This document shows, piece by piece, positions 1,374-10,519 of a stretch of 64,000 nucleotides of DNA. The DNA is from Candidatus Sigynarchaeum calidifontis. Lineage in GTDB: Archaea; Asgardarchaeota; Lokiarchaeia; Sigyniarchaeales; Sigyniarchaeaceae. The position numbers and the translations under genes are program-made. How positions within the stretch are numbered: position 1 is the stretch's first letter; each line of letters starts with the position of its first letter. The notes below the pieces were generated by a model. That model was not told where the DNA came from. It did no database searches and was given only the letters and a program-made list of their open reading frames with translations. The stretch lies in contig JAUQYZ020000035.1 of assembly GCA_030587475.2 (NCBI GenBank), positions 1 to 64,000 on the forward strand. Reading direction: 5' to 3'.

Positions 1374-1871
1374 TCACGGATTCGGCTTTTGCTCGAAGGT
1401 CTTCGCTGCTTTTGCCGACTTCTCCTTGATATATTTCTTGAAAAAGTCGAAATCCCTGGATTGCAATTCCAGCTCGAGGTAATCGAGCTTTTTCTTGAGG
1501 TCGTCATTCTCCCTCCTGATCTCGTCCGCCTCGGCTGCCTTCTGCCTTGTCTCTTGCTTGGACGCCTCGAGGCTCGCGGCCAGGTCGCGGTTTTTCTGCT
1601 CGAGTTGGTTGATCTTGCTCTCCAGAGCTTCGATCCTGGCCTCGAAATTCGATTGCATCTTGTTTTTTTCGTCCACGAGGTTTTTCATATGCCGGTCCTT
1701 TTCGGACGTCGTTGTCTCGACGGTCACCTTCATACCTTCCAGTTTCCCGCCCAATGAAACGATTTCCTTCTCCAGGGCATCAATTTTAGCGCGCATCTCG
1801 AGCAAGACGCTCCCGCGCACCTTGTGTTCCTTTTCTTTTTTCGACTCGACTTTGCCCCAATCGATGCTCAT
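1374..1871 (-). CDS. Coiled-coil hypothetical protein
   Basis: MSIDWGKVESKK start, then a continuous K/E-rich heptad pattern; start trimmed from the 2009 ORF. Confidence 0.7.
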   Translation of the reverse strand: MSIDWGKVESKKEKEHKVRGSVLLEMRAKIDALEKEIVSLGGKLEGMKVTVETTTSEKDRHMKNLVDEKNKMQSNFEARIEALESKINQLEQKNRDLAASLEASKQETRQKAAEADEIRRENDDLKKKLDYLELELQSRDFDFFKKYIKEKSAKAAKTFEQKPNP

Positions 1872-2237
1872 GATAGATACACTCGCTTGATGTGTTGCAC
1901 GTGGGTACCTTATATACTCGTCGTCCAGAAAACGGGCCATGTGAAAAGTTGCTTCATGGTTACGAGGACAAGAGCGAGTTCTTGCTGCCCTCGGGATGGA
2001 TTGAATCATTATCCTTGGTGGGCTGCAGGCATGACAAGCAGACGTTCGCCCCGTAAAAGAAGCGATTCACGGAGGACGCCTCACTAGGGCATGGAAGGCA
2101 TGTCTTTTGCCTCAAAACTTCTTTTTTTACGAAGGGTGGTTGGTTCGCCGTAGATATTCTTGAACGAGATCGGGACTTCCATGAAGAGAAACTCTTTTTA
2201 GGGGCTGAGGCGTTTTTTAAATCATCATCCAAGGATT

Positions 2238-2663
2238 GTGGTGGAAAAAGTCTTGTGGAAAAAAAGGCGCATAAAAAAGGACTTTGACACCGCGGTTGCC
2301 GAGGGAAACGACGCGAAGATCGAGCAACTGGTAAAGGACAATCCTTGGCTTCAAGACTACGTGGACGAGAACGGCGACGAAACGGATGTTAACGTGAAGC
2401 GCATATGCGCAGCCATCGGTATAATGGAAGACGAGCGCTCCGCGCCGGCGACCATTGATGACATCATAGAGTCGCTTCGCCAAGATTTTAACGTGAACAT
2501 GTCCCCGGCACAAGTCGAAAGTGTTTGTATGGATCTGGAAAACAAGGGGTACATCAAGGCACAAGATGCGGGGTATGTGCTCACGGTCGAGGGCGGTCGC
2601 ATCTGCGATAATTACTTGAACAAGCAATCGAGCGAGCTGCTTGGAGACCTTCCCTCCGAGTGA
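2238..2663 (+). CDS. Hypothetical protein with C-terminal winged helix
   Basis: ATIDDIIESLRQDFNVNMSPAQVESVCMDLENKGYIK...YVLTVEG is a wHTH pattern. Confidence 0.65.
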   Translation: MVEKVLWKKRRIKKDFDTAVAEGNDAKIEQLVKDNPWLQDYVDENGDETDVNVKRICAAIGIMEDERSAPATIDDIIESLRQDFNVNMSPAQVESVCMDLENKGYIKAQDAGYVLTVEGGRICDNYLNKQSSELLGDLPSE

Positions 2664-2719
2664 TGCGTTTCATTGATACGATCAAGAAAAACCATATAAA
2701 ACGTGATGAGTGGTTCAAA

Positions 2720-3004
2720 ATGACAAACAATACATGCACTGAATGCGGCGGGACGACGTTCCGCCTCGTTGTTGATGCTTGGATGAAAAGAACTTTTTCA
2801 TTCGTGGAAAAAGCTGCGGGTCTTCAAATGTGTACTGGTTGCGGGGCTAAATTTTACCAATGTCCGAAATGTGGTGCACTCGTGACCCGAGTGCATCCCG
2901 CGCTCGAAGCCTGGGAAGTGAGCAGCAAATGCGAGAAATGTGGCTTCATTAATCCAGACATCAAGGCATGGGATGGCACGAGCGCGAATCCGAACAAGTT
3001 GTAG
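2720..3004 (+). CDS. Small double zinc-ribbon protein (paralog 1)
   Basis: Four Cys pairs: CTECG, CTGCG, CPKCG, CEKCG. Confidence 0.75.
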   Translation: MTNNTCTECGGTTFRLVVDAWMKRTFSFVEKAAGLQMCTGCGAKFYQCPKCGALVTRVHPALEAWEVSSKCEKCGFINPDIKAWDGTSANPNKL

Positions 3005-3062
3005 GCCATCATACACCTTTTCTTTTTTTATTCGAGCACTTTATTCACGTCAGGTGCATATA

Positions 3063-3338
3063 ATGGTCGATCGTATATGCGACGAGTGTGGTGGCACGGC
3101 CTTCCGGCCCCAGAACGATAGCATTCTCAAACGCAAGTTGCCGTTCGTGAATGGCCCCCTATTGCTGTGCGACGCGTGCGGTGCCAAGTATCTCCCGTGC
3201 GAGTGCGGTGCTCTCTTCACGCGCGTGCACCTCACCATCGATGTCGAGGGGATGCGATCCACGTGCCCGAGCTGCGGCAAGAAGAACGCGGAAATAGAGG
3301 CGTTCATCCAGCGTGGCGGGCCGGAAGGCTATCAATAG
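3063..3338 (+). CDS. Small double zinc-ribbon protein (paralog 2)
   Basis: CDECG, CDACG, CECG, CPSCG; colinear with paralog 1 (CGAK, CGAL-TRVH). Confidence 0.75.
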   Translation: MVDRICDECGGTAFRPQNDSILKRKLPFVNGPLLLCDACGAKYLPCECGALFTRVHLTIDVEGMRSTCPSCGKKNAEIEAFIQRGGPEGYQ

Positions 3339-3463
3339 CACTTTTTTTTTATTGTCGTTGTCAGCTATCTCGGATTTTTATCAGTGCCGGAAGCTTCTTT
3401 ATAATCTATTCTTTCTATAAGTCATTCGCTAAGGTATCGATCATCCGGGACGGCTTGCACGCT

Positions 3464-4264
3464 ATGAATGTAGAAGAGAACGGGAAGCAGCGCAAGCGGC
3501 AATCCCTCTTCACTAAGCTCATCTACAAGCTTTACGAGCACCGGCTCTGGAAACAAATAAAGGATGGCCCCGTCCCGAACCATATCGGCATCATCCTTGA
3601 CGGGAACCGGCGGTTCGCGAAGAAATACGGTATGGATGCGAACTGGGGCCATTTCATGGGGTACGAGAAGGTTAAGGACGTGCTGGATTGGTGCCTCAAT
3701 CTCAAGATCAAGACACTCACCCTCTACGTGCTATCCACGGAAAATTTCAAGCGACCAGAAGAGGAACTCAAAGCGCTCTTTGGGCTGATAATGAAAGGTT
3801 GCGAGGAGGTTCGAAACGATCCACGCATCCACGAGAATCAAGTCCGGGTCACCGCTATCGGTCGTTTAAATTTACTCCCTGCCGAAGCGCAAGCTGCAAT
3901 ACACGAGCTTGAAGAATCCACGAAAAAATACGACAAGCTCTTCCTCAACATGGCGGTCGCGTATGGTGGCCGTGCCGAGATCATCGATAGCATCAAGCAA
4001 ATTGCCAAGGATGTCAAGGACGGAATTATCCGCATCGAGGACATTACCGACGAGACCGTGCAGCAACACCTCTACAAGAATGGCCCCGATCCGGACATGA
4101 TCATCCGCACGTCGGGCGAGAAGCGGCTATCCGGGTTCTTGCTCTGGCAATCCGCCTACTCGGAGTTGTACTTCGAGGATGCTTATTTTCCCGAATTCCG
4201 CAAGATCGACTTCTGGCGCGCCATCCGGGCATTCCAAAAACGCGAGCGCCGGTTCGGCGCGTGA
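3464..4264 (+). CDS. uppS: cis-prenyltransferase (polyprenyl diphosphate synthase)
   Basis: HIGIILDGNRR, STENFKRP, YGGRAEI, DPDMIIRTSGEKRLSGFLLWQSAYSEL, C-terminal RRFG. Confidence 0.95.
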   Translation: MNVEENGKQRKRQSLFTKLIYKLYEHRLWKQIKDGPVPNHIGIILDGNRRFAKKYGMDANWGHFMGYEKVKDVLDWCLNLKIKTLTLYVLSTENFKRPEEELKALFGLIMKGCEEVRNDPRIHENQVRVTAIGRLNLLPAEAQAAIHELEESTKKYDKLFLNMAVAYGGRAEIIDSIKQIAKDVKDGIIRIEDITDETVQQHLYKNGPDPDMIIRTSGEKRLSGFLLWQSAYSELYFEDAYFPEFRKIDFWRAIRAFQKRERRFGA

Positions 4265-4301
4265 ACGCGTAAAATGCTCGCGTTCACCGGCAATACACCG
4301 G

Positions 4302-4814
4302 TCACTTGTAGGTGTCGTTCACGTGATCTGTGAACTGCCGCATGAATTGCGCCATGTCGATGTAATACCCCACGCGCTCGGTCAACGAAATCTTGTCGCC
4401 CTTGACCTTGACCAGCCCGAGCGCCTCTAATTCCTTTAAATCTGGCGCCACGTCCTTGATTTTCCTGATCCGACGAACTTGCTCGACCGTTGCTCCTCCC
4501 TCGTCGCACGTGGTCGCGATCAAAACCGCGACGAGCGTCGATGCGAGCCTGGTGCGTCCTTGAAAGGGATTGATCCGTGCCTGGCCGGCAACGTCCCCCG
4601 TGCAAGCCAGGAACCAGTGCCCGTCCAGCACGTTTCGCTCGACCTTGAAGCCGAAAATCTCGATGCTATTCGAGTATGCCTGGAGGATGCGGTATAGCTG
4701 TTCCGGGGCTCCTTTCCCTTGCAAGCCGAGTGCTGCTATCAATTCCTCGTCGGTCGCCCCGATCACGTCGCCGCGTCGGGCGAGCAAGAAGCTGATGACC
4801 TTGAAATCGTTCAT
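4302..4814 (-). CDS. Putative KITE subunit (ScpB/Nse1/Nse3-like tandem winged helix)
   Basis: Two WH-like halves; ATVEQVRRIR...LKELEALGLVKVKG resembles ScpB WH-B; ATGA overlap with the upstream kleisin-like gene. Confidence 0.6.
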   Translation of the reverse strand: MNDFKVISFLLARRGDVIGATDEELIAALGLQGKGAPEQLYRILQAYSNSIEIFGFKVERNVLDGHWFLACTGDVAGQARINPFQGRTRLASTLVAVLIATTCDEGGATVEQVRRIRKIKDVAPDLKELEALGLVKVKGDKISLTERVGYYIDMAQFMRQFTDHVNDTYK

Positions 4815-5533
4815 CTTCCTTCCCTCCACAAGCGGATCCTTGTTTCGGCGATAGACTTACCGGCATTGTCGATGTCTGGGTCATCTAGAATCACGAGATC
4901 GCCGTCCTGGATCAGATGCAAGACGTGAATGAATGCCTTGACGCGGTCGATGCCGAGCTCGGTCTCGAGGTGGTCGAGGATATCGCGTAGTGGCGCGCTG
5001 GATTTCCCGGCCAGCTGCCTGGCATTACGCAAGGAATTCACGATACTTGCCTTTTCCTGGAAGAAATTGCGCTCGTCGATGGCAATCTCGAAGCTCGCCT
5101 GGATCGAACCAGCATCATCAATGACTTCGCATACGGGGATCCCGCGGCGTTCTCGGCCCATGCTTGCAAGGACCTCGGCTAGGAAGGGTTGGGATAAGGT
5201 CGTGAATTCCACGGCCTCTCGCCAGCGAACCAGTTTGGTCACCGCTTCAAGGCCCCCTGGATCCTGCAAAAAGAGGGCGAGCTTGTCCCTGCCTATCTCG
5301 AACACCATGGCCTTGAATGCCTGGATCTTGTAATCGAGGATATCGCAGAGCGTGGAAAACAACGAAACGAAATCAGGGAGCTTGGCAACTCGATTATCTG
5401 GCAGTGCATGGAACGCGGAAATGTAGTCGGCGAGCGGTTGTATCGGATCCAGCTTGCCCGCCTTGATGTCGTTCTTGATCGCGACGAGCTGCCCGGCGAA
5501 ATAATCGAGAGCGAGCTGTTTCATCGCTTTCAC
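4811..5533 (-). CDS. Putative kleisin (ScpA/Nse4-like)
   Basis: N-terminal LDPIQPLADYI...FSTLCDILDYK and C-terminal DRVKAFIHVLHLIQDGDLVI resemble ScpA termini; directly downstream of SMC. Confidence 0.65.
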   Translation of the reverse strand: MKAMKQLALDYFAGQLVAIKNDIKAGKLDPIQPLADYISAFHALPDNRVAKLPDFVSLFSTLCDILDYKIQAFKAMVFEIGRDKLALFLQDPGGLEAVTKLVRWREAVEFTTLSQPFLAEVLASMGRERRGIPVCEVIDDAGSIQASFEIAIDERNFFQEKASIVNSLRNARQLAGKSSAPLRDILDHLETELGIDRVKAFIHVLHLIQDGDLVILDDPDIDNAGKSIAETRIRLWREGR

Positions 5534-5561
5534 TGCGCCATGCCTCCTATCGATGCATCGA

Positions 5562-8500
5562 TCACTGTTCTTCGACCATCCGCGTGAACTCCTGCTCGTC
5601 CAGCTCGATGACCCGTGATGGCCCGAGCTGGTTCATTTCCATTGCACCCGTGTCGCCGTTCGCGAATTTCATTCCTTGCCTGACTATCGCGATGATCTTG
5701 TCTGCCGACTTGATGAATCCGTGTGACGTGGTGGGGACAAGCATGATCAACTGGACGCGCTCGGTGGTCTTGCGGATCAACCGGGAGATCAGCTCCTTGT
5801 TCGAATCATCGAGGTAGATATGCGCCTCGTCGAACACGCATATGGGGCCCGGGTTGAGGTCTTGCAGCGTGAGCATGATCGCGAGCGCGATGAGCGATTT
5901 CTGCCCTTCAGAAACGGCCGCGAGGGGGAGCCTGCTGCCGTTGAAGAAGTCGACTGAAACGTCTATGGCTGGGTCGGTAAAGCTCCCTCTCGCGGTGAGG
6001 ACGGGTCGGAATGGGATACCCAGGTCGGTAAATTTACCGGCAACCAACCTTTCGAGTTCCTGCACCTTCCCGCTCATTTTTTCCACATAAGATTCCTTGA
6101 GTTTGTTCCCGATGGCTTCCACGCTCGAAACCTCTTGCGCTATCTCGTCCATCTTGGCCGATATGCCGGCTAGGACACGTGAATTTTCGGCGTGTTCTCG
6201 CTCGATGGCGTCCGTGATGCAAAAAAAGTCCGGAGCTGCCAATCTCTTGGCCACGCGGGCGATCAGCAAGTCATACTCCTCGATCGTCTTGAGCTGCTCG
6301 GGCTTGACCTGGCCCTTCAAGTTCGAATCGATGTAGGCCTGCTCGCGCTCGAGACTCGCGATTTCTTGACACGCGCGTTCCCGTTCAATGTCGAGCACTT
6401 TGAGCTTGAGATCGAGCTCGTTCAACCGGCCCGTCCTTTCCTTGAAGATCCCGCCGAGCTCCTCCTTGCGCTTGGAAAGGCCAGCGATGGTCTCGATACA
6501 GACCTTCGTTTGTGCCTTGATAGCATCGATGCGCTCCCCGATCACCTTGACCTCAGATGCGTTCTTCCGGATTTCGACCTTCAACCGCTCGTGCTCGTCT
6601 ATGATCGCGTTCAATTGCTTTTCCGCGTCGTCCATTGCCTTCTCTATCGCGCTGGCCCTGGATCGCGCGGCTTGCATCGCCTCGTCGATGGCTGTACTCC
6701 GTGCCAGTGCCTCATCAAGGCGGGTTTTCGTCGCCGAGAGCTCGTTTTTTAACAAGAGAACCTCGCGTGGCTTTTGAGCTTCGATTTTTTTCTGTTCTGC
6801 AAGGAGATGCTGGATGACCTCGTCGTTACGGTCGATAGCCTGCTTGATAACGTCCTTGTCAGCGAGTAACTGGTTTTTCTTGGTGCTCTTGATCTCCTTT
6901 TGCTTCAAGAAGATCCGGATCTTGATCAGGTCGTTTTGTTTTCCCTCCTTTTCCTTGCGCTGCCGCCGTAACTCCTCGATTTGTCCATCCAGCGTGGCGA
7001 TCTCCTTGGCCACGAGGTTGGCGCGCATGGAGAGTCCCCCGCTGTCATCCACCTCGCGCTGAGGGATCAAGATGAGTGGACCGAAATACGGGGGTTGCGA
7101 TTCGATGACGTCGTCTTTCGACTCGACGATGACCCCGTCGAGCGTGATGCACCTCGCCCGATCGTCCGCCTTCACGAGTTTAACGGCATCAGAGAAAGTT
7201 TCTACCACTATCGTGTCGCGCGCAATACGATCGACGAGAGGTCGGAGCCAATCCGGGACTTTAATAAGTCTGTACAAGTAATCGATGACCCCCGGGAACT
7301 TGAGCGGGGGCCGGTTATGCGATCCTGGAGCGAGCTTGCCCGGGTGATAAATCGTGGCGGGAACCTTGTACTTGTTCCTCAAGGAGTTGAGCAAGTTGAA
7401 ATTTTCCTCCGAAAACGACACGAAACCGAGCAGCCCGTGTTTCTTGAACTGGGCCTCGATTGCCCTCGCGTGTGCCCGATCGAATTCCATGTACTCATGG
7501 ATGGGTCCCTTAATGCTGTCTTGGAGGCCTCGACGCTGGATATCTTGCTTGAGCAATTCGACCTCCTTGAAGATCCTTCGTTCATCTTCTTGCGCCCCGG
7601 CGCCGCGGCCAAGTTCCTTGAGCAAATCCGCTTCGATGCGCTTCTTGATCGCTCGGGCCTCCTCTTTTTGCTTGATCGCTGCATCAATGTCCTTGATCTC
7701 TTGAACAAGCAACGCCTTCAAATCGCTCTTCCCGTCTGCAGAATAGTCCCATTTGATTTGTCGCAATTCCGTGGTGAACTCGTTGATCTCCTCGATGAGA
7801 GACTTTATCTCGGCTTCATTCTCCTCAAGCCTCTTCTCGTTGAGCTTCTTTTCTCGCCTTTCATTCTCGATGTCCCGCTTCACGCGATCATGCTCGTTGA
7901 TCCAGTCTTGATTTTTCACGAGGTCGTTTGATAAACGCGTGAACGTTTCTTGTAACTCGCGTATGGTCGACGCGTGCTCGCGTGCCATGGCTTCGGAGCG
8001 ATCCTTTTCAGATCTCGATTCGCGAAGCTGGATACCCAAGTCCTTTAAAACATTGGTCGCCTCGTCTTTTTTTTGTTTCAATTCCTCATTACGCTGGTGC
8101 AATTCCTGCTTGACCTTGTCCCACCGCCCGATCTCTTCCGCGAGCCGTGCCTGTTCGGCCTTCAAGGTTCCCAATTCACCCTGCTTGGTGCTAATGTCCG
8201 CGGCGATGGCGTCTCTTTCGCGAGTGATCTCGTCCATCATTGCTACCAGTGCTGCTTTCTCGTTGTCGATGATTCGAATCTCTTCCTCCTTGGCACTGGC
8301 ATATGCTCGCTTGCCCTCGATCTTGCGCTTGATATCTTCTTTCTGGGCCCAGCTGCGCTCGGCTTGGTATCCCAGGAGCTCGCTTTCCAGCTGCCGTTTT
8401 TCCGCGAGCTTGGCCATCTGGCCATCCAGCACCCGCTGATGCTTGGAACACGTCTCTTTTTGGGCACGGAGACGTTCAAGCTCGCCTTGTAACTCGGCGA

Positions 8501-9059
8501 CCTTTTTCGCATTGCCCTCGATCTCCTCCCGCAAGCTGGCCACGCCCATGCCGTCCTCGATGAGGCCGTAGATCTCGCGCGCAGACAAGTCTTTTATCTT
8601 GTTCACGTGGCCCTGGGCCACGAATGAAAAGATATTATCAGGAAAGATGCGGAAGTGTTCCACGAGGGCATTCAGCGTCGTGGCGTTCAGGTGCTTCCCG
8701 TTCAGATAGAAGCTAGAGCCCTGGTCTTTTCTATGTAGGCGGGCGATCTCGTAGGTCGTGCCGTCCGGGGCCCGGAACCCGGCCCGGACGCGCATGAAGT
8801 CGCAACCCGTGTGGATGAACCCTTCCCACTTGGTATATCGCCCGTCCTTTGCATTAGAACCAAGCACGAACTTGAGCGCGTGGAACACGGCAGATTTGCC
8901 CGCGCCGTTCGGCCCCGTGATGATAGAAAAACGGGACGTGTTGCCATCCTTCAAGCTCAGCGAAATCGTGGCTTTTTTGAAGGAGAGAAATTGCTCCAGC
9001 TCGATCCATTCCAATAGGAGGCCAGTCGAGACATTCTTGATGTTTCCTAGATTCGTCAA
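5562..9059 (-). CDS. SMC-family ATPase, Smc5/6-related
   Basis: Walker A GPNGAGKS, Q-loop FVAQG, two long coiled coils around a hinge (IKGPIHEY...AIEA; CITLDG), signature VSEGQKS, Walker B ICVFDE. Confidence 0.93.
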   Translation of the reverse strand: MTNLGNIKNVSTGLLLEWIELEQFLSFKKATISLSLKDGNTSRFSIITGPNGAGKSAVFHALKFVLGSNAKDGRYTKWEGFIHTGCDFMRVRAGFRAPDGTTYEIARLHRKDQGSSFYLNGKHLNATTLNALVEHFRIFPDNIFSFVAQGHVNKIKDLSAREIYGLIEDGMGVASLREEIEGNAKKVAELQGELERLRAQKETCSKHQRVLDGQMAKLAEKRQLESELLGYQAERSWAQKEDIKRKIEGKRAYASAKEEEIRIIDNEKAALVAMMDEITRERDAIAADISTKQGELGTLKAEQARLAEEIGRWDKVKQELHQRNEELKQKKDEATNVLKDLGIQLRESRSEKDRSEAMAREHASTIRELQETFTRLSNDLVKNQDWINEHDRVKRDIENERREKKLNEKRLEENEAEIKSLIEEINEFTTELRQIKWDYSADGKSDLKALLVQEIKDIDAAIKQKEEARAIKKRIEADLLKELGRGAGAQEDERRIFKEVELLKQDIQRRGLQDSIKGPIHEYMEFDRAHARAIEAQFKKHGLLGFVSFSEENFNLLNSLRNKYKVPATIYHPGKLAPGSHNRPPLKFPGVIDYLYRLIKVPDWLRPLVDRIARDTIVVETFSDAVKLVKADDRARCITLDGVIVESKDDVIESQPPYFGPLILIPQREVDDSGGLSMRANLVAKEIATLDGQIEELRRQRKEKEGKQNDLIKIRIFLKQKEIKSTKKNQLLADKDVIKQAIDRNDEVIQHLLAEQKKIEAQKPREVLLLKNELSATKTRLDEALARSTAIDEAMQAARSRASAIEKAMDDAEKQLNAIIDEHERLKVEIRKNASEVKVIGERIDAIKAQTKVCIETIAGLSKRKEELGGIFKERTGRLNELDLKLKVLDIERERACQEIASLEREQAYIDSNLKGQVKPEQLKTIEEYDLLIARVAKRLAAPDFFCITDAIEREHAENSRVLAGISAKMDEIAQEVSSVEAIGNKLKESYVEKMSGKVQELERLVAGKFTDLGIPFRPVLTARGSFTDPAIDVSVDFFNGSRLPLAAVSEGQKSLIALAIMLTLQDLNPGPICVFDEAHIYLDDSNKELISRLIRKTTERVQLIMLVPTTSHGFIKSADKIIAIVRQGMKFANGDTGAMEMNQLGPSRVIELDEQEFTRMVEEQ

Positions 9060-9090
9060 TGGCGATGCTCGCCCCCGGATTCCTCATTGA

Positions 9091-10383
9091 TCAAGAATAT
9101 TTTGCCCGGAAATGCCTCTTGATCATGTCGATCTTGTTCTTCGCCGCATCGAGCTTTCGCTTTGCGGTGAGGATGTCATCATGTAACAAAAACGGATACC
9201 TCACGAGAAAAGCCCTGTCCTCTTGCATGAACACGCCTTTGTCCAAATGCTCGAGAACCCGAGCGATGGCATCGTAATCGCGGTCTGCTGCGGATTCCCA
9301 CAGCACCTCCTTGAACGGGTCGTCGACGAGCTGCTGGATCCCGCTGGCAATATTCGATTGGTTCCCGCCAGGAACTAGAACTGGCGATTGGGCTTGTGGT
9401 GGCACCCGCTGCTCGGGTTCGTCGCCAGGTTTGTTGGCCCTTTGTGTCGTGAATCTGCTCGAGGGCGGTATGAACTCGTCTAGATCGTTGTCGCCGTGTA
9501 TTGCATCTAGCAAGAACTTGGCGGATACCTCCTTTAACTCCTTGGCTTGCTTCTGAAGCATTGCGTACTTGGCGAAAGCCTCGATATCTGCCCATGTCCA
9601 CCCTTCCATCTCGCCGGTAACGAGCGAGAAATCGATCATTCCATCGGGCGAGATTAAATGCTTGAGGTAGAGCTCCCTCTCCTCCCGCTTGGGCAAGTCG
9701 ATATCGACTGTGAAATCAACCGTGTTGAGATAGCGCGGCTCTATTGCCCGCGGATTGTCCGTCACGATTATAAGGACGAGCTTGTCCCTTTGAAAGATGC
9801 GATTGACGATGAATTGAGAGAACCGGAGGATAAATGTTGCTGCCGACGAGCTTTCCTTGATCTTAAACGACCGTGACAAGAACGTCTCTGCGTTATGCAA
9901 GAAGACTGCAGAAGGAACGTTGATACGCAAAAAATCAAAGAAATCATCCATTGACAATGCGAATTCCTTGAAATCTACGAGAATCTTGTCCATATCCACC
10001 TCAAACATCGGAAATTCCTTGGAAGTATCCGGCAACTTCAATTCTCTCGTTGAGACATCGATCCCGTGGTGATTCTTGTTAACAATAACGTTCCCGTGGT
10101 ATACAATATTTTTATCGTCCCTGGCTCCGCTTTTCACGAGAAGCGCACTGTAAAAAGCAATTATCTTGGCGAGCTCTTTTGCGAAAGCTAGCTCCTGCAA
10201 AGTTGACGGTCCTTTCTCGCTTCCGACGATGTCTCGAGCTTGAATGCGCGAGATGTACGACGAGACGGGCGATCCCTTCTCTGCTTGAGGGAGTGCCATC
10301 GCGGGCTTTTCCATCTTGGCCATACCCTCGCCCGCTGTGGCCTTTCTAGGCTCATCCATTTTTCTTGCTTCCCATCCTCTCAT
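9091..10383 (-). CDS. Degenerate (probably inactive) classic-clade AAA+ protein
   Basis: AAA lid DLPKREERELYL...DFSLVTGEMEGWTWADIEAFAKYA retained; Walker A/B positions read NKNHHGID and AVFLHN. Confidence 0.65.
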   Translation of the reverse strand: MRGWEARKMDEPRKATAGEGMAKMEKPAMALPQAEKGSPVSSYISRIQARDIVGSEKGPSTLQELAFAKELAKIIAFYSALLVKSGARDDKNIVYHGNVIVNKNHHGIDVSTRELKLPDTSKEFPMFEVDMDKILVDFKEFALSMDDFFDFLRINVPSAVFLHNAETFLSRSFKIKESSSAATFILRFSQFIVNRIFQRDKLVLIIVTDNPRAIEPRYLNTVDFTVDIDLPKREERELYLKHLISPDGMIDFSLVTGEMEGWTWADIEAFAKYAMLQKQAKELKEVSAKFLLDAIHGDNDLDEFIPPSSRFTTQRANKPGDEPEQRVPPQAQSPVLVPGGNQSNIASGIQQLVDDPFKEVLWESAADRDYDAIARVLEHLDKGVFMQEDRAFLVRYPFLLHDDILTAKRKLDAAKNKIDMIKRHFRAKYS

Positions 10384-10519
10384 ACGGAAGCGATCTTATA
10401 TACCTTCATGGTTTAACACGCCTGGCGTTATTGTATATTAAATCCCCGTGCCTTTCATAGTAGCATCAGTGCACGGAATTTCTGGAACGTTTAATGACAA
10501 AATATCATCGTGACATATC

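Follow-up and report, generated by a model that had tools for sequence, protein, structure and literature searches.

The four-gene cluster described here most probably encodes an Asgard 'SMC5/6-related' complex, the third SMC system of its genome, which is accompanied by a co-inherited dead AAA+ protein and serves in chromosome maintenance; this identity is drawn from gene order, taxa and profile links. The cluster lies in a stretch of 64,000 nucleotides of Candidatus Sigynarchaeum calidifontis (contig JAUQYZ020000035.1, positions 1 to 64,000), referred to here as the window. Operons for an SMC, a kleisin and a kite of the archaeal 'SMC5/6-related' type have already been published for both TACK and Asgard archaea (Yoshinaga & Inagaki 2021, PMC8665677; van Hooff, Raas, Tromer & Eme, bioRxiv 10.1101/2024.01.07.573240), so the operon type is not new and the high novelty implied by an earlier note on this DNA is not warranted. 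The main addition is a divergent copy from the Sigynarchaeum lineage, together with independent support from profiles, fold models and complex prediction.

The region between 4302 and 10383 is filled by four co-oriented ORFs on the minus strand (Table 1), separated by gaps of 31 bp (pseudo-AAA+/SMC) and 28 bp (SMC/kleisin). The last two genes share an ATGA at 4811-4814, in which the TGA stop of the kleisin gene (4813-4811) overlaps the ATG of the kite gene (4814-4812); this overlap, by which the gene pair is translationally coupled, is preceded by the purine-rich GGAGGGAAGGAAG. The four genes and their overlap are positioned as the earlier note had claimed, and the peptide strings that it quoted are all present in the translations. 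Upstream of the operon, a TATA-like box, GTATATAAG, can be read from the sequence some 10-18 bp before the first ATG, and the divergent intergenic region that contains it is probably the operon promoter.

Table 1 Features of the cluster, in window coordinates.
Feature	Position	Strand	Remarks
Pseudo-AAA+ gene (P0001)	9091..10383	-	430 aa; second ATG at 10359 is a possible start
SMC ATPase gene	5562..9059	-	1165 aa, TTG start; GTG at 9032 also possible
Kleisin gene (P0003)	4811..5533	-	240 aa; 237 aa from ATG at 5524 (collection call)
KITE gene (P0004)	4302..4814	-	170 aa from ATG at 4814; ORF 4302-4829 gives 175 aa
Divergent intergenic region	10384..10519		candidate operon promoter; read from sequence

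The cluster is a stable feature of Asgard genomes. An identical four-gene order is found in 29/29 of the best Asgard loci and in 6/6 further named Asgard contigs, with the pseudo-AAA+ gene upstream of the SMC gene in all 35 loci inspected. Because the same order recurs across Asgard loci, the arrangement is not due to chance. Of the 154 genomes in the order, 140 have the kite gene, with hardly any carrying it more than once, and the operon's neighbours here are housekeeping genes (thiolase, cis-prenyltransferase, CoaBC and ValRS). This near-universal, single-copy and syntenic distribution, together with the nature of the neighbours, argues for a role in chromosome maintenance or organisation and not in mobile defence.

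What, then, of the proposal that the complex works as a Wadjet- or Lamassu-like defence against plasmids and viruses, with the pseudo-AAA+ as a sensor or effector adaptor? The gene family does evolve fast, with 24-27% identity between families of one order, the SMC protein attracts generic SMC-type matches in PADLOC (mad3 at 69 bits and LmuB at 65 bits), and eukaryotic Smc5/6 is reported to restrict extrachromosomal viral DNA (PMC9458440). Nonetheless, PADLOC returns nothing for P0001, P0003 and P0004, its JetA and JetB models have no match in the cluster, and its JetC models reach at most 20 bits. No nuclease or Toprim gene, JetD included, lies within the cluster or adjoining it, as the earlier note had observed, and a gene order that is fixed in 35 loci is unlike that of defence islands. 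The defence reading is accordingly highly improbable, and the Wadjet-like restriction role that the earlier note entertained finds no support.

The SMC protein has the full architecture of its superfamily: the two halves of the head lie at the N- and C-termini, and a central hinge sits between long coiled coils. It matches PF02463 SMC_N with 121 bits over residues 16-1127 and PF06470 SMC_hinge with 28 bits (cut-off 22.5) over residues 515-628, its score against TIGR02169 is 220 bits (cut-off 729), and the family profile aligns at full length to Smc2 and Smc4 chains, from about 4-7 to 1090 (Smc2) or 1126 (Smc4). All the ATPase motifs are retained in the split ABC-type head, namely Walker A, Q-loop, signature, Walker B and D-loop, and K55, Q149, S1050/G1052, D1077-E1078 and P1109 are invariant in 25 family members; the signature itself reads VSEGQ in the lineage of this protein and SGGQ/E in other clades. 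The protein belongs to the Asgard family 'SMC-X', shares no more than 22-24% identity with either of the other SMCs in the genome, and is presumed to form the homodimeric core of the complex.

One link between this SMC and Smc5/6 lies in a single residue. Proline replaces the H-loop histidine (Q-h-h-h-h-T/V/L-P, P1109) throughout the 25 members, just as it does in PDB alignments of Smc5 (LITPKLL) and Smc6 (LLTPqs), which bears out the earlier observation of a switch common to the two eukaryotic proteins, while the canonical SMCs of the genome have ISH or VTH there. Short SMC relatives from TACK archaea read QYxxITP at this position and have an N-terminal LGS motif in common with SMC-X; their best PDB matches are Smc6 (238 bits) and Smc5 (237), ahead of Smc and Smc2 (190). 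The SMC-X profile itself, however, reaches 240-174 bits on Smc4, Smc2, Smc3 and Smc1, more than on Smc5 (152) and Smc6 (135), and prokaryotic Smc heads also score higher. The 'Smc5/6-like hinge' of the earlier note amounts to a generic feature.

The profile scores count in favour of an alternative in which the operon is a fast-evolving duplicate of canonical Smc-ScpAB whose Nse4- and Nse-like signals reflect convergence or profile noise. In a head tree that was rooted on Rad50 and built from non-eukaryotic sequences, a grouping of SMC-X with canonical SMC is not rejected (p-AU 0.165), and the maximum-likelihood topology places SMC-X, with low support (36/32), beside the Smc5/6-like TACK proteins, the same proteins with which it has the H-loop proline and the LGS motif in common. 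The partner subunits also bear on this alternative, which is unlikely overall.

Consider the kleisin. The protein (P0003) has no sequence match in Pfam, NCBIfam or the PDB, a Pfam or NCBIfam match is found in 0/28 members of its alignment A1 and 0/76 of the larger A6, and an Nse4_C search of the genome does not match the gene. In its model there are helices at the N-terminus and a winged helix at the C-terminus (151-240); the 'ScpA-like ends' noted before are generic features. In profile-profile comparison with hhalign, A6 aligns to the kleisins of TACK archaea and Hadarchaea (A7) with a probability of 97.1% (E 4.8e-11, 211 columns), against 0.5% for the canonical Asgard ScpA-type profile that was used as a control, and within A7 PF08743 Nse4_C is matched by 13/26 members (best E 3.5e-7). 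A lead in the ESM Atlas likewise connects the kleisin to archaeal clusters that bear Nse4_C (score 0.92). By this comparison the kleisin appears to be of the Nse4 type, through a link that runs solely via the TACK family A7.

The association of kleisin and SMC was addressed by complex prediction. The pairing of the SMC head with the kleisin gives an ipSAE of 0.61 against 0.00 for the best control; at least 61% of contacts are common to the runs, and the partner pLDDT is 65 or more. The mark used is reached by 58/80 solved complexes and 2/110 mismatched pairs, and the pass may stem from likeness to solved SMC-kleisin structures. Kleisin residues 31-80 are placed on the SMC neck (176-200 and 962-994) and residues 182-236 on the cap (1110-1154), a model in which the N-terminal helices would bind the neck and the C-terminal winged helix the cap.

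The kite model (pLDDT 85) consists of two winged-helix domains, in keeping with the tandem pattern recognised earlier, and in Foldseek ScpB takes all ten of the top places (E 2e-5), with Nse1, MAGE, JetB and MukE ranking behind it. With VIA it aligns to ScpB with Z 11.3 (rmsd 3.3 over 150 residues), to Nse1 with Z 9.3 over 158 residues and to MAGE-G1 with Z 8.8 over 158. In addition, Pfam SMC_ScpB is weakly matched by 3/26 family members and one further Loki orthologue, and no member directly matches Nse1 or MAGE in Pfam. The nearest fold and the weak ScpB matches speak for a canonical duplicate, but the profiles point the other way: the kite alignment A3 reaches 93.8% (E 1.7e-7) in hhalign against the TACK kites (A8), which weakly match MAGE (4/26, best 3.6e-4) and Nse1 (3/26, 0.0086), and only 0.5% against the canonical Asgard ScpB-type control. 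The earlier claim that the SMC has a kleisin and a kite of its own, which Pfam and NCBIfam fail to annotate, stands, and both align with Nse4- and Nse1/3-type archaeal families and not with ScpAB, with the qualification that by fold the kite is nearest to ScpB.

Finally, the gene upstream of the SMC encodes, as its sequence reads, a classic-clade AAA+ fold (Cdc48/p97/Vps4-like) with degenerate Walker motifs, in accord with the dead AAA+ of the earlier note. The family profile A4 matches p97 D1/D2 with E 2e-12 and Vps4 with 1e-7; P0001 itself has no Pfam match, and PF00004 is reached by 2/22 members and AAA_lid_3 by one. In the alignment the P-loop position is occupied by PGTD[IFL] or GPPGTDF, and by NKNHHGID in P0001, and the Walker B position by LINQ, IAKLE or LHNAE. 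It is because the Walker A lysine and the Walker B hhhhDE are missing that the protein is classed as a pseudo-enzyme. At its C-terminus lies a conserved helical domain. The protein most likely serves the complex without enzymatic activity, either as a fourth subunit or as a loading or regulatory adaptor.

How might such a complex work? By analogy with the established SMC mechanism, two copies of the 1165-aa SMC would dimerise through their hinges, and the Nse4-type kleisin would close the ring, its N-terminal helices forming a bundle with the coiled coil at the neck of one head while the winged helix at its C-terminus caps the second head. The kite, as a dimer, would bind the middle of the kleisin, a contact for which the evidence is the translational coupling of the two genes. 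Driven by ATP cycling, the ring would then clamp, entrap or extrude DNA; this is expected because the SMC keeps every ATPase motif, although with the signature reading VSEGQ its ATPase competence is assumed, and the dead AAA+ may act on the ring as a non-enzymatic subunit or as a loading or regulatory adaptor. A bolder version, which is possible but falls short of an even chance, would make the dead AAA+ a genuine fourth subunit that serves as loader, gate-keeper or DNA/chromatin adaptor, was acquired in those archaea that are nearest to eukaryotes and has a role like that of Nse5/6-type regulators in eukaryotic Smc5/6, and would place the full-length Asgard ring with its hinge, not the short TACK form, as the direct ancestor of Smc5/6.

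No known organisms are more closely related to eukaryotes than Asgard archaea, and among the SMC complexes of eukaryotes Smc5/6 is the one least understood. A simple homodimeric ring with a single kleisin and a single kite would provide a tractable model for how complexes of the Smc5/6 type are loaded and act on DNA, and the dead AAA+, if it binds, would represent an undescribed class of regulator for SMC complexes.

Among known systems, Wadjet (JetABCD) and MksBEFG similarly combine an SMC-type ATPase, a kleisin and a kite, and JetB and MukE rank among the weaker matches to the kite fold, but the cluster described here is a core, single-copy syntenic set, not an island, and is without the JetD/MksG nuclease. 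With Smc-ScpAB it would have in common a homodimeric SMC with a hinge, a kite dimer and a kleisin that spans from neck to cap, whereas its kleisin and kite have no profile similarity to the genome's own ScpA/ScpB-type families; the two ScpB-type SMC loci of the genome differ from one another in that C112 has an intervening kleisin-sized gene and C182 has no kleisin gene between. Eukaryotic Smc5/6 works with the kleisin Nse4 and the kites Nse1 and Nse3, and the likeness extends to a ring of SMC, kleisin and tandem winged-helix kites, to the proline in place of the H-loop histidine, to a kleisin tied to Nse4_C via a TACK family and to a kite whose model can be aligned from end to end with Nse1 and MAGE-G1. 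Unlike the Smc5/Smc6 pair and the two kites of eukaryotes, there is one SMC gene (presumed homodimer) and one kite gene without a RING domain, no Nse2 or Nse5/6 was identified, and direct sequence scores are below those to Smc1-4. Eukaryotic Smc5/6 is not known to have a pseudo-AAA+ partner. The nearest counterparts are the archaeal SMC5/6-related operons, for which the order of SMC, Nse4-related kleisin and Nse1/3-like kite is listed in Prometheoarchaeum and Heimdall LC_3 (bioRxiv 10.1101/2024.01.07.573240). A conserved pseudo-AAA+ gene was not found in PMC8665677, and 'AAA' has 0 occurrences in the main text of the preprint, to which this count is confined; the conserved upstream pseudo-AAA+ marks the Asgard form, as does an SMC of about 1150 aa with a hinge, compared with 555-690 aa for the TACK relatives found. 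In the remaining respects the correspondence is close, since the gene order is the same, the complex is likewise an extra one beside a ScpB-type system, and the TACK families in which Nse4_C and MAGE/Nse1 signals occur are those to which the profiles of its kleisin and kite align.

The P0002 SMC gene is part of a compact operon with genes for a pseudo-AAA+ protein, a kleisin and a kite. The earlier note had read such a four-gene operon from the sequence, and this is borne out by four minus-strand ORFs within 4302-10383 together with an ATGA overlap between the stop of the kleisin gene and the start of the kite gene, which is preceded by a purine-rich stretch; the gaps within the operon measure 31 and 28 bp. 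The identification of the parts was likewise right, with SMC_N and hinge regions in the SMC, a kleisin, a tandem winged-helix kite and a dead AAA+ protein. The divergent intergenic region 5' of the pseudo-AAA+ gene is 136 bp, with a TATA-like box just upstream of that gene. At the other end, 3' of the kite stop, an inverted repeat (GTGAACGCG ... CGCGTTCAC, window 4261-4287) lies near a T-run (4236-4240) and may be a terminator common to the kite gene and the convergent prenyltransferase gene.

Genes of the operon, in window positions
Gene	Positions	Strand	Product
P0001 (pseudo-AAA+)	9091-10383	minus	430 aa ORF
P0002 (SMC)	5562-9059	minus	1165 aa ORF
P0003 (kleisin)	4811-5533	minus	240 aa ORF
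P0004 (kite)	4302-4829	minus	ORF; alternatively 170 aa from ATG at 4814

The operon is not a defence island. Its neighbours encode a thiolase with a ChsH2-like partner, a cis-prenyltransferase, CoaBC and ValRS, and with PADLOC the products of P0001, P0003 and P0004 are without a match and P0002 has generic SMC-type matches only. Elsewhere in the window, a 114-aa ORF (2660-3004, plus strand) has a weak, below cut-off match to the Cas12f1-like TNB zinc ribbon (E 3.7e-4) and may be a TnpB-type remnant.

Is this operon copy an extra paralogue or an orthologue of the operon in other Asgard archaea? The nearest proteins are encoded in MAGs of Candidatus Sigynarchaeum and Lokiarchaeia, and the SMC occurs in 137 of the 301 Asgard genomes sampled (E below 1e-20). 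The synteny check confirmed the arrangement, with the gene order alike in 29/29 best loci (a gene of about 400 aa (276-439), the SMC, then genes of 190-239 aa and about 175 aa) and in six named Asgard contigs. The kite occurs in all three other genomes of the source organism's family and in 140 of the 154 genomes of the order. It is nearly always single per genome. The operon copy is therefore a fast-evolving orthologue of the Loki/Thor operon and not an extra paralogue.

The source assembly (4.99 Mb, 89% complete, with the window on contig C49) holds three SMC systems: searching it with SMC_N brought out two full-length SMCs besides P0002. Contig C112 has, after its SMC, a gene of 393 aa and a ScpB-type kite (117 bits), and on contig C182 a ScpB-like protein (74 bits) comes directly after the SMC. 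Across the aligned head regions these two SMCs share 31-34% identity with each other, and P0002 only 22-24% with either; a complete Loki genome has a separate orthologue for each of the three loci. At C182 (G000 C182:739-7122, outside the window) no kleisin gene separates the SMC (1502-5080, minus) from the ScpB-like gene (739-1497), and a 147-aa ORF upstream of the SMC (6679-7122), parted from it by a 443-aa plus-strand ORF (5569-6900), repeats the SMC N-terminus, as if the 5' end of the gene had been duplicated or disrupted. The complete Loki genome also carries a fourth SMC-type locus (L045, G213:C1:1132000-1146000), which encodes an intact IetA-like AAA+ protein (PADLOC 2.7e-56), a 1057-aa SMC-like protein and proteins of 322, 313 and 176 aa, the 313-aa one with a weak Nse4_C match (1.3e-3); tblastn found no locus of this type in the window's genome.

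P0002 itself scores 121 bits for SMC_N, 28 bits for the SMC hinge and 220 bits for TIGR02169, for which 729 are needed. The 25-member SMC alignment shows no variation at the Lys of Walker A, the Gln of the Q-loop, the Ser and second Gly of the signature, the Asp-Glu of Walker B, or a Pro that takes the place of the H-loop His. In the Sigynarchaeum/Hodarchaeota clade the signature (window 5886-5900, SMC residues ~1049-1053) is VSEGQ, and in the Loki and Thor orthologues it is SGGQ or SGGE.

Direct Pfam and NCBIfam scans gave no match for P0001, P0003 or P0004, and P0003 belongs to no curated family. A HMMER profile of the kleisin against 1.84 billion representatives closed on a family of 127 proteins, and none of the 74 that were scanned (those of at least 190 aa) has a Pfam kleisin domain; an Nse4_C search of five genomes missed P0003 and matched another locus, in a Loki genome. 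Profile searches of the PDB with the kleisin (alignments A1 and A6) and kite (A3) returned sub-threshold rows only, among them P. furiosus ScpA-C (E 0.68) and winged helices of Lrs14/MarR (0.012-0.6). In terms of fold, the earlier note's reading stood for the kite. The 170-aa kite is modelled from a 26-sequence alignment as two winged helices and a C-terminal helix (pLDDT 85), ScpB takes all ten of the best Foldseek places (E 2e-5, TM 0.6), followed by Nse1, MAGE-A3, JetB, Nse3 and MukE, and whole-length VIA comparison gives ScpB Z 11.3 (150 residues), Nse1 Z 9.3 (158) and MAGE-G1 Z 8.8 (158). The kleisin monomer gave a low-confidence model (pLDDT 65), with helices at the N-terminus and a C-terminal winged helix that is itself confident; this model matches generic winged helices only, with Nse4 (Z 7.7) level with many others.

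The proposed pairing of SMC and kleisin found support in one complex prediction, of the SMC head (residues 1-220 and 940-1165) with the kleisin, which gave an ipSAE of 0.61 against 0.00 for the best control; of 80 solved complexes 58 attain that mark, and of 110 mismatched pairs 2 do. Runs agreed in at least 61% of contacts, with a partner pLDDT of at least 65. Kleisin residues 31-80 are predicted to follow the two strands of the neck coiled coil and the winged helix (182-236) to sit on the SMC C-terminal lobe (1110-1154), so that the predicted geometry is the canonical two-site one. This pass speaks for likeness and is not proof of binding, because SMC-kleisin complexes are solved.

P0001 has no Pfam match, and its 22-member profile finds p97/Cdc48 (both AAA+ domains, E 2e-12) and Vps4 (1e-7). 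The P-loop Lys and Walker B Asp-Glu occur in none of the 22 members; the C-terminal helical domain is well conserved. A full-text literature search for AAA+ with Asgard SMC-Nse4-kite found solely van Hooff et al. (bioRxiv 10.1101/2024.01.07.573240), in whose main text 'AAA' has zero occurrences.

Relatives outside Asgard were sought with a pattern of the Walker A and LGS motifs of the SMC family, and were found in Bathyarchaeia, Nitrososphaeria, Hadarchaeota, Korarchaeia, Methanomethylicia and Thermofilales; ESM Atlas matches were taken as leads only. Most of these loci have an SMC-like protein of 555-690 aa, then genes of about 265 and 190 aa, and the pseudo-AAA+ gene is in none of the TACK loci inspected. 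At many TACK/Hadarchaeal loci (L066, L067, L068, L075, L078, L084, L091 and L094) a divergent gene of ~225-245 aa lies directly 5' of the short SMC, with no AAA-like gene at that site.

It is through the partners that the Smc5/6-type lineage proposed in the earlier note proved right. Pfam Nse4_C is found in 13/26 TACK kleisins (best E 3.5e-7), and the TACK kites match MAGE (4/26) and Nse1 (3/26), all weakly. Profile-profile comparison joins the Asgard and TACK kleisins at 97.1% (E 4.8e-11, 211 columns) and the kites at 93.8% (E 1.7e-7), against 0.5% for the control with canonical Asgard ScpA-type and ScpB-type families. The TACK SMC profile is topped by Smc6 (238 bits) and Smc5 (237), with prokaryotic Smc and Smc2 at 190. 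The evidence drawn from the SMC head and hinge was overstated: the Asgard SMC profile itself scores Smc4, Smc2, Smc3 and Smc1 (240-174 bits) above Smc5 and Smc6 (152, 135). A head-domain tree of non-eukaryotic SMCs, rooted on three Rad50 (taken as the Mre11-adjacent gene, a zinc-hook search having given no usable sequence), did group the P0002 family with the TACK proteins, but with support of only 36/32, and forcing it with canonical SMCs cost 1.45 log-likelihood units (p-AU 0.165). The Smc5/6 assignment therefore rests on partners and shared motifs and not on the SMC tree; the Pro at the H-loop His position recurs in Smc5/Smc6 alignments with the TACK SMC (LITPKLL, LLTPqs). The novelty claimed for the system was also too great, in that the P0002-P0004 operon matches the published archaeal 'SMC5/6-related' operons (PMC8665677; bioRxiv 10.1101/2024.01.07.573240).
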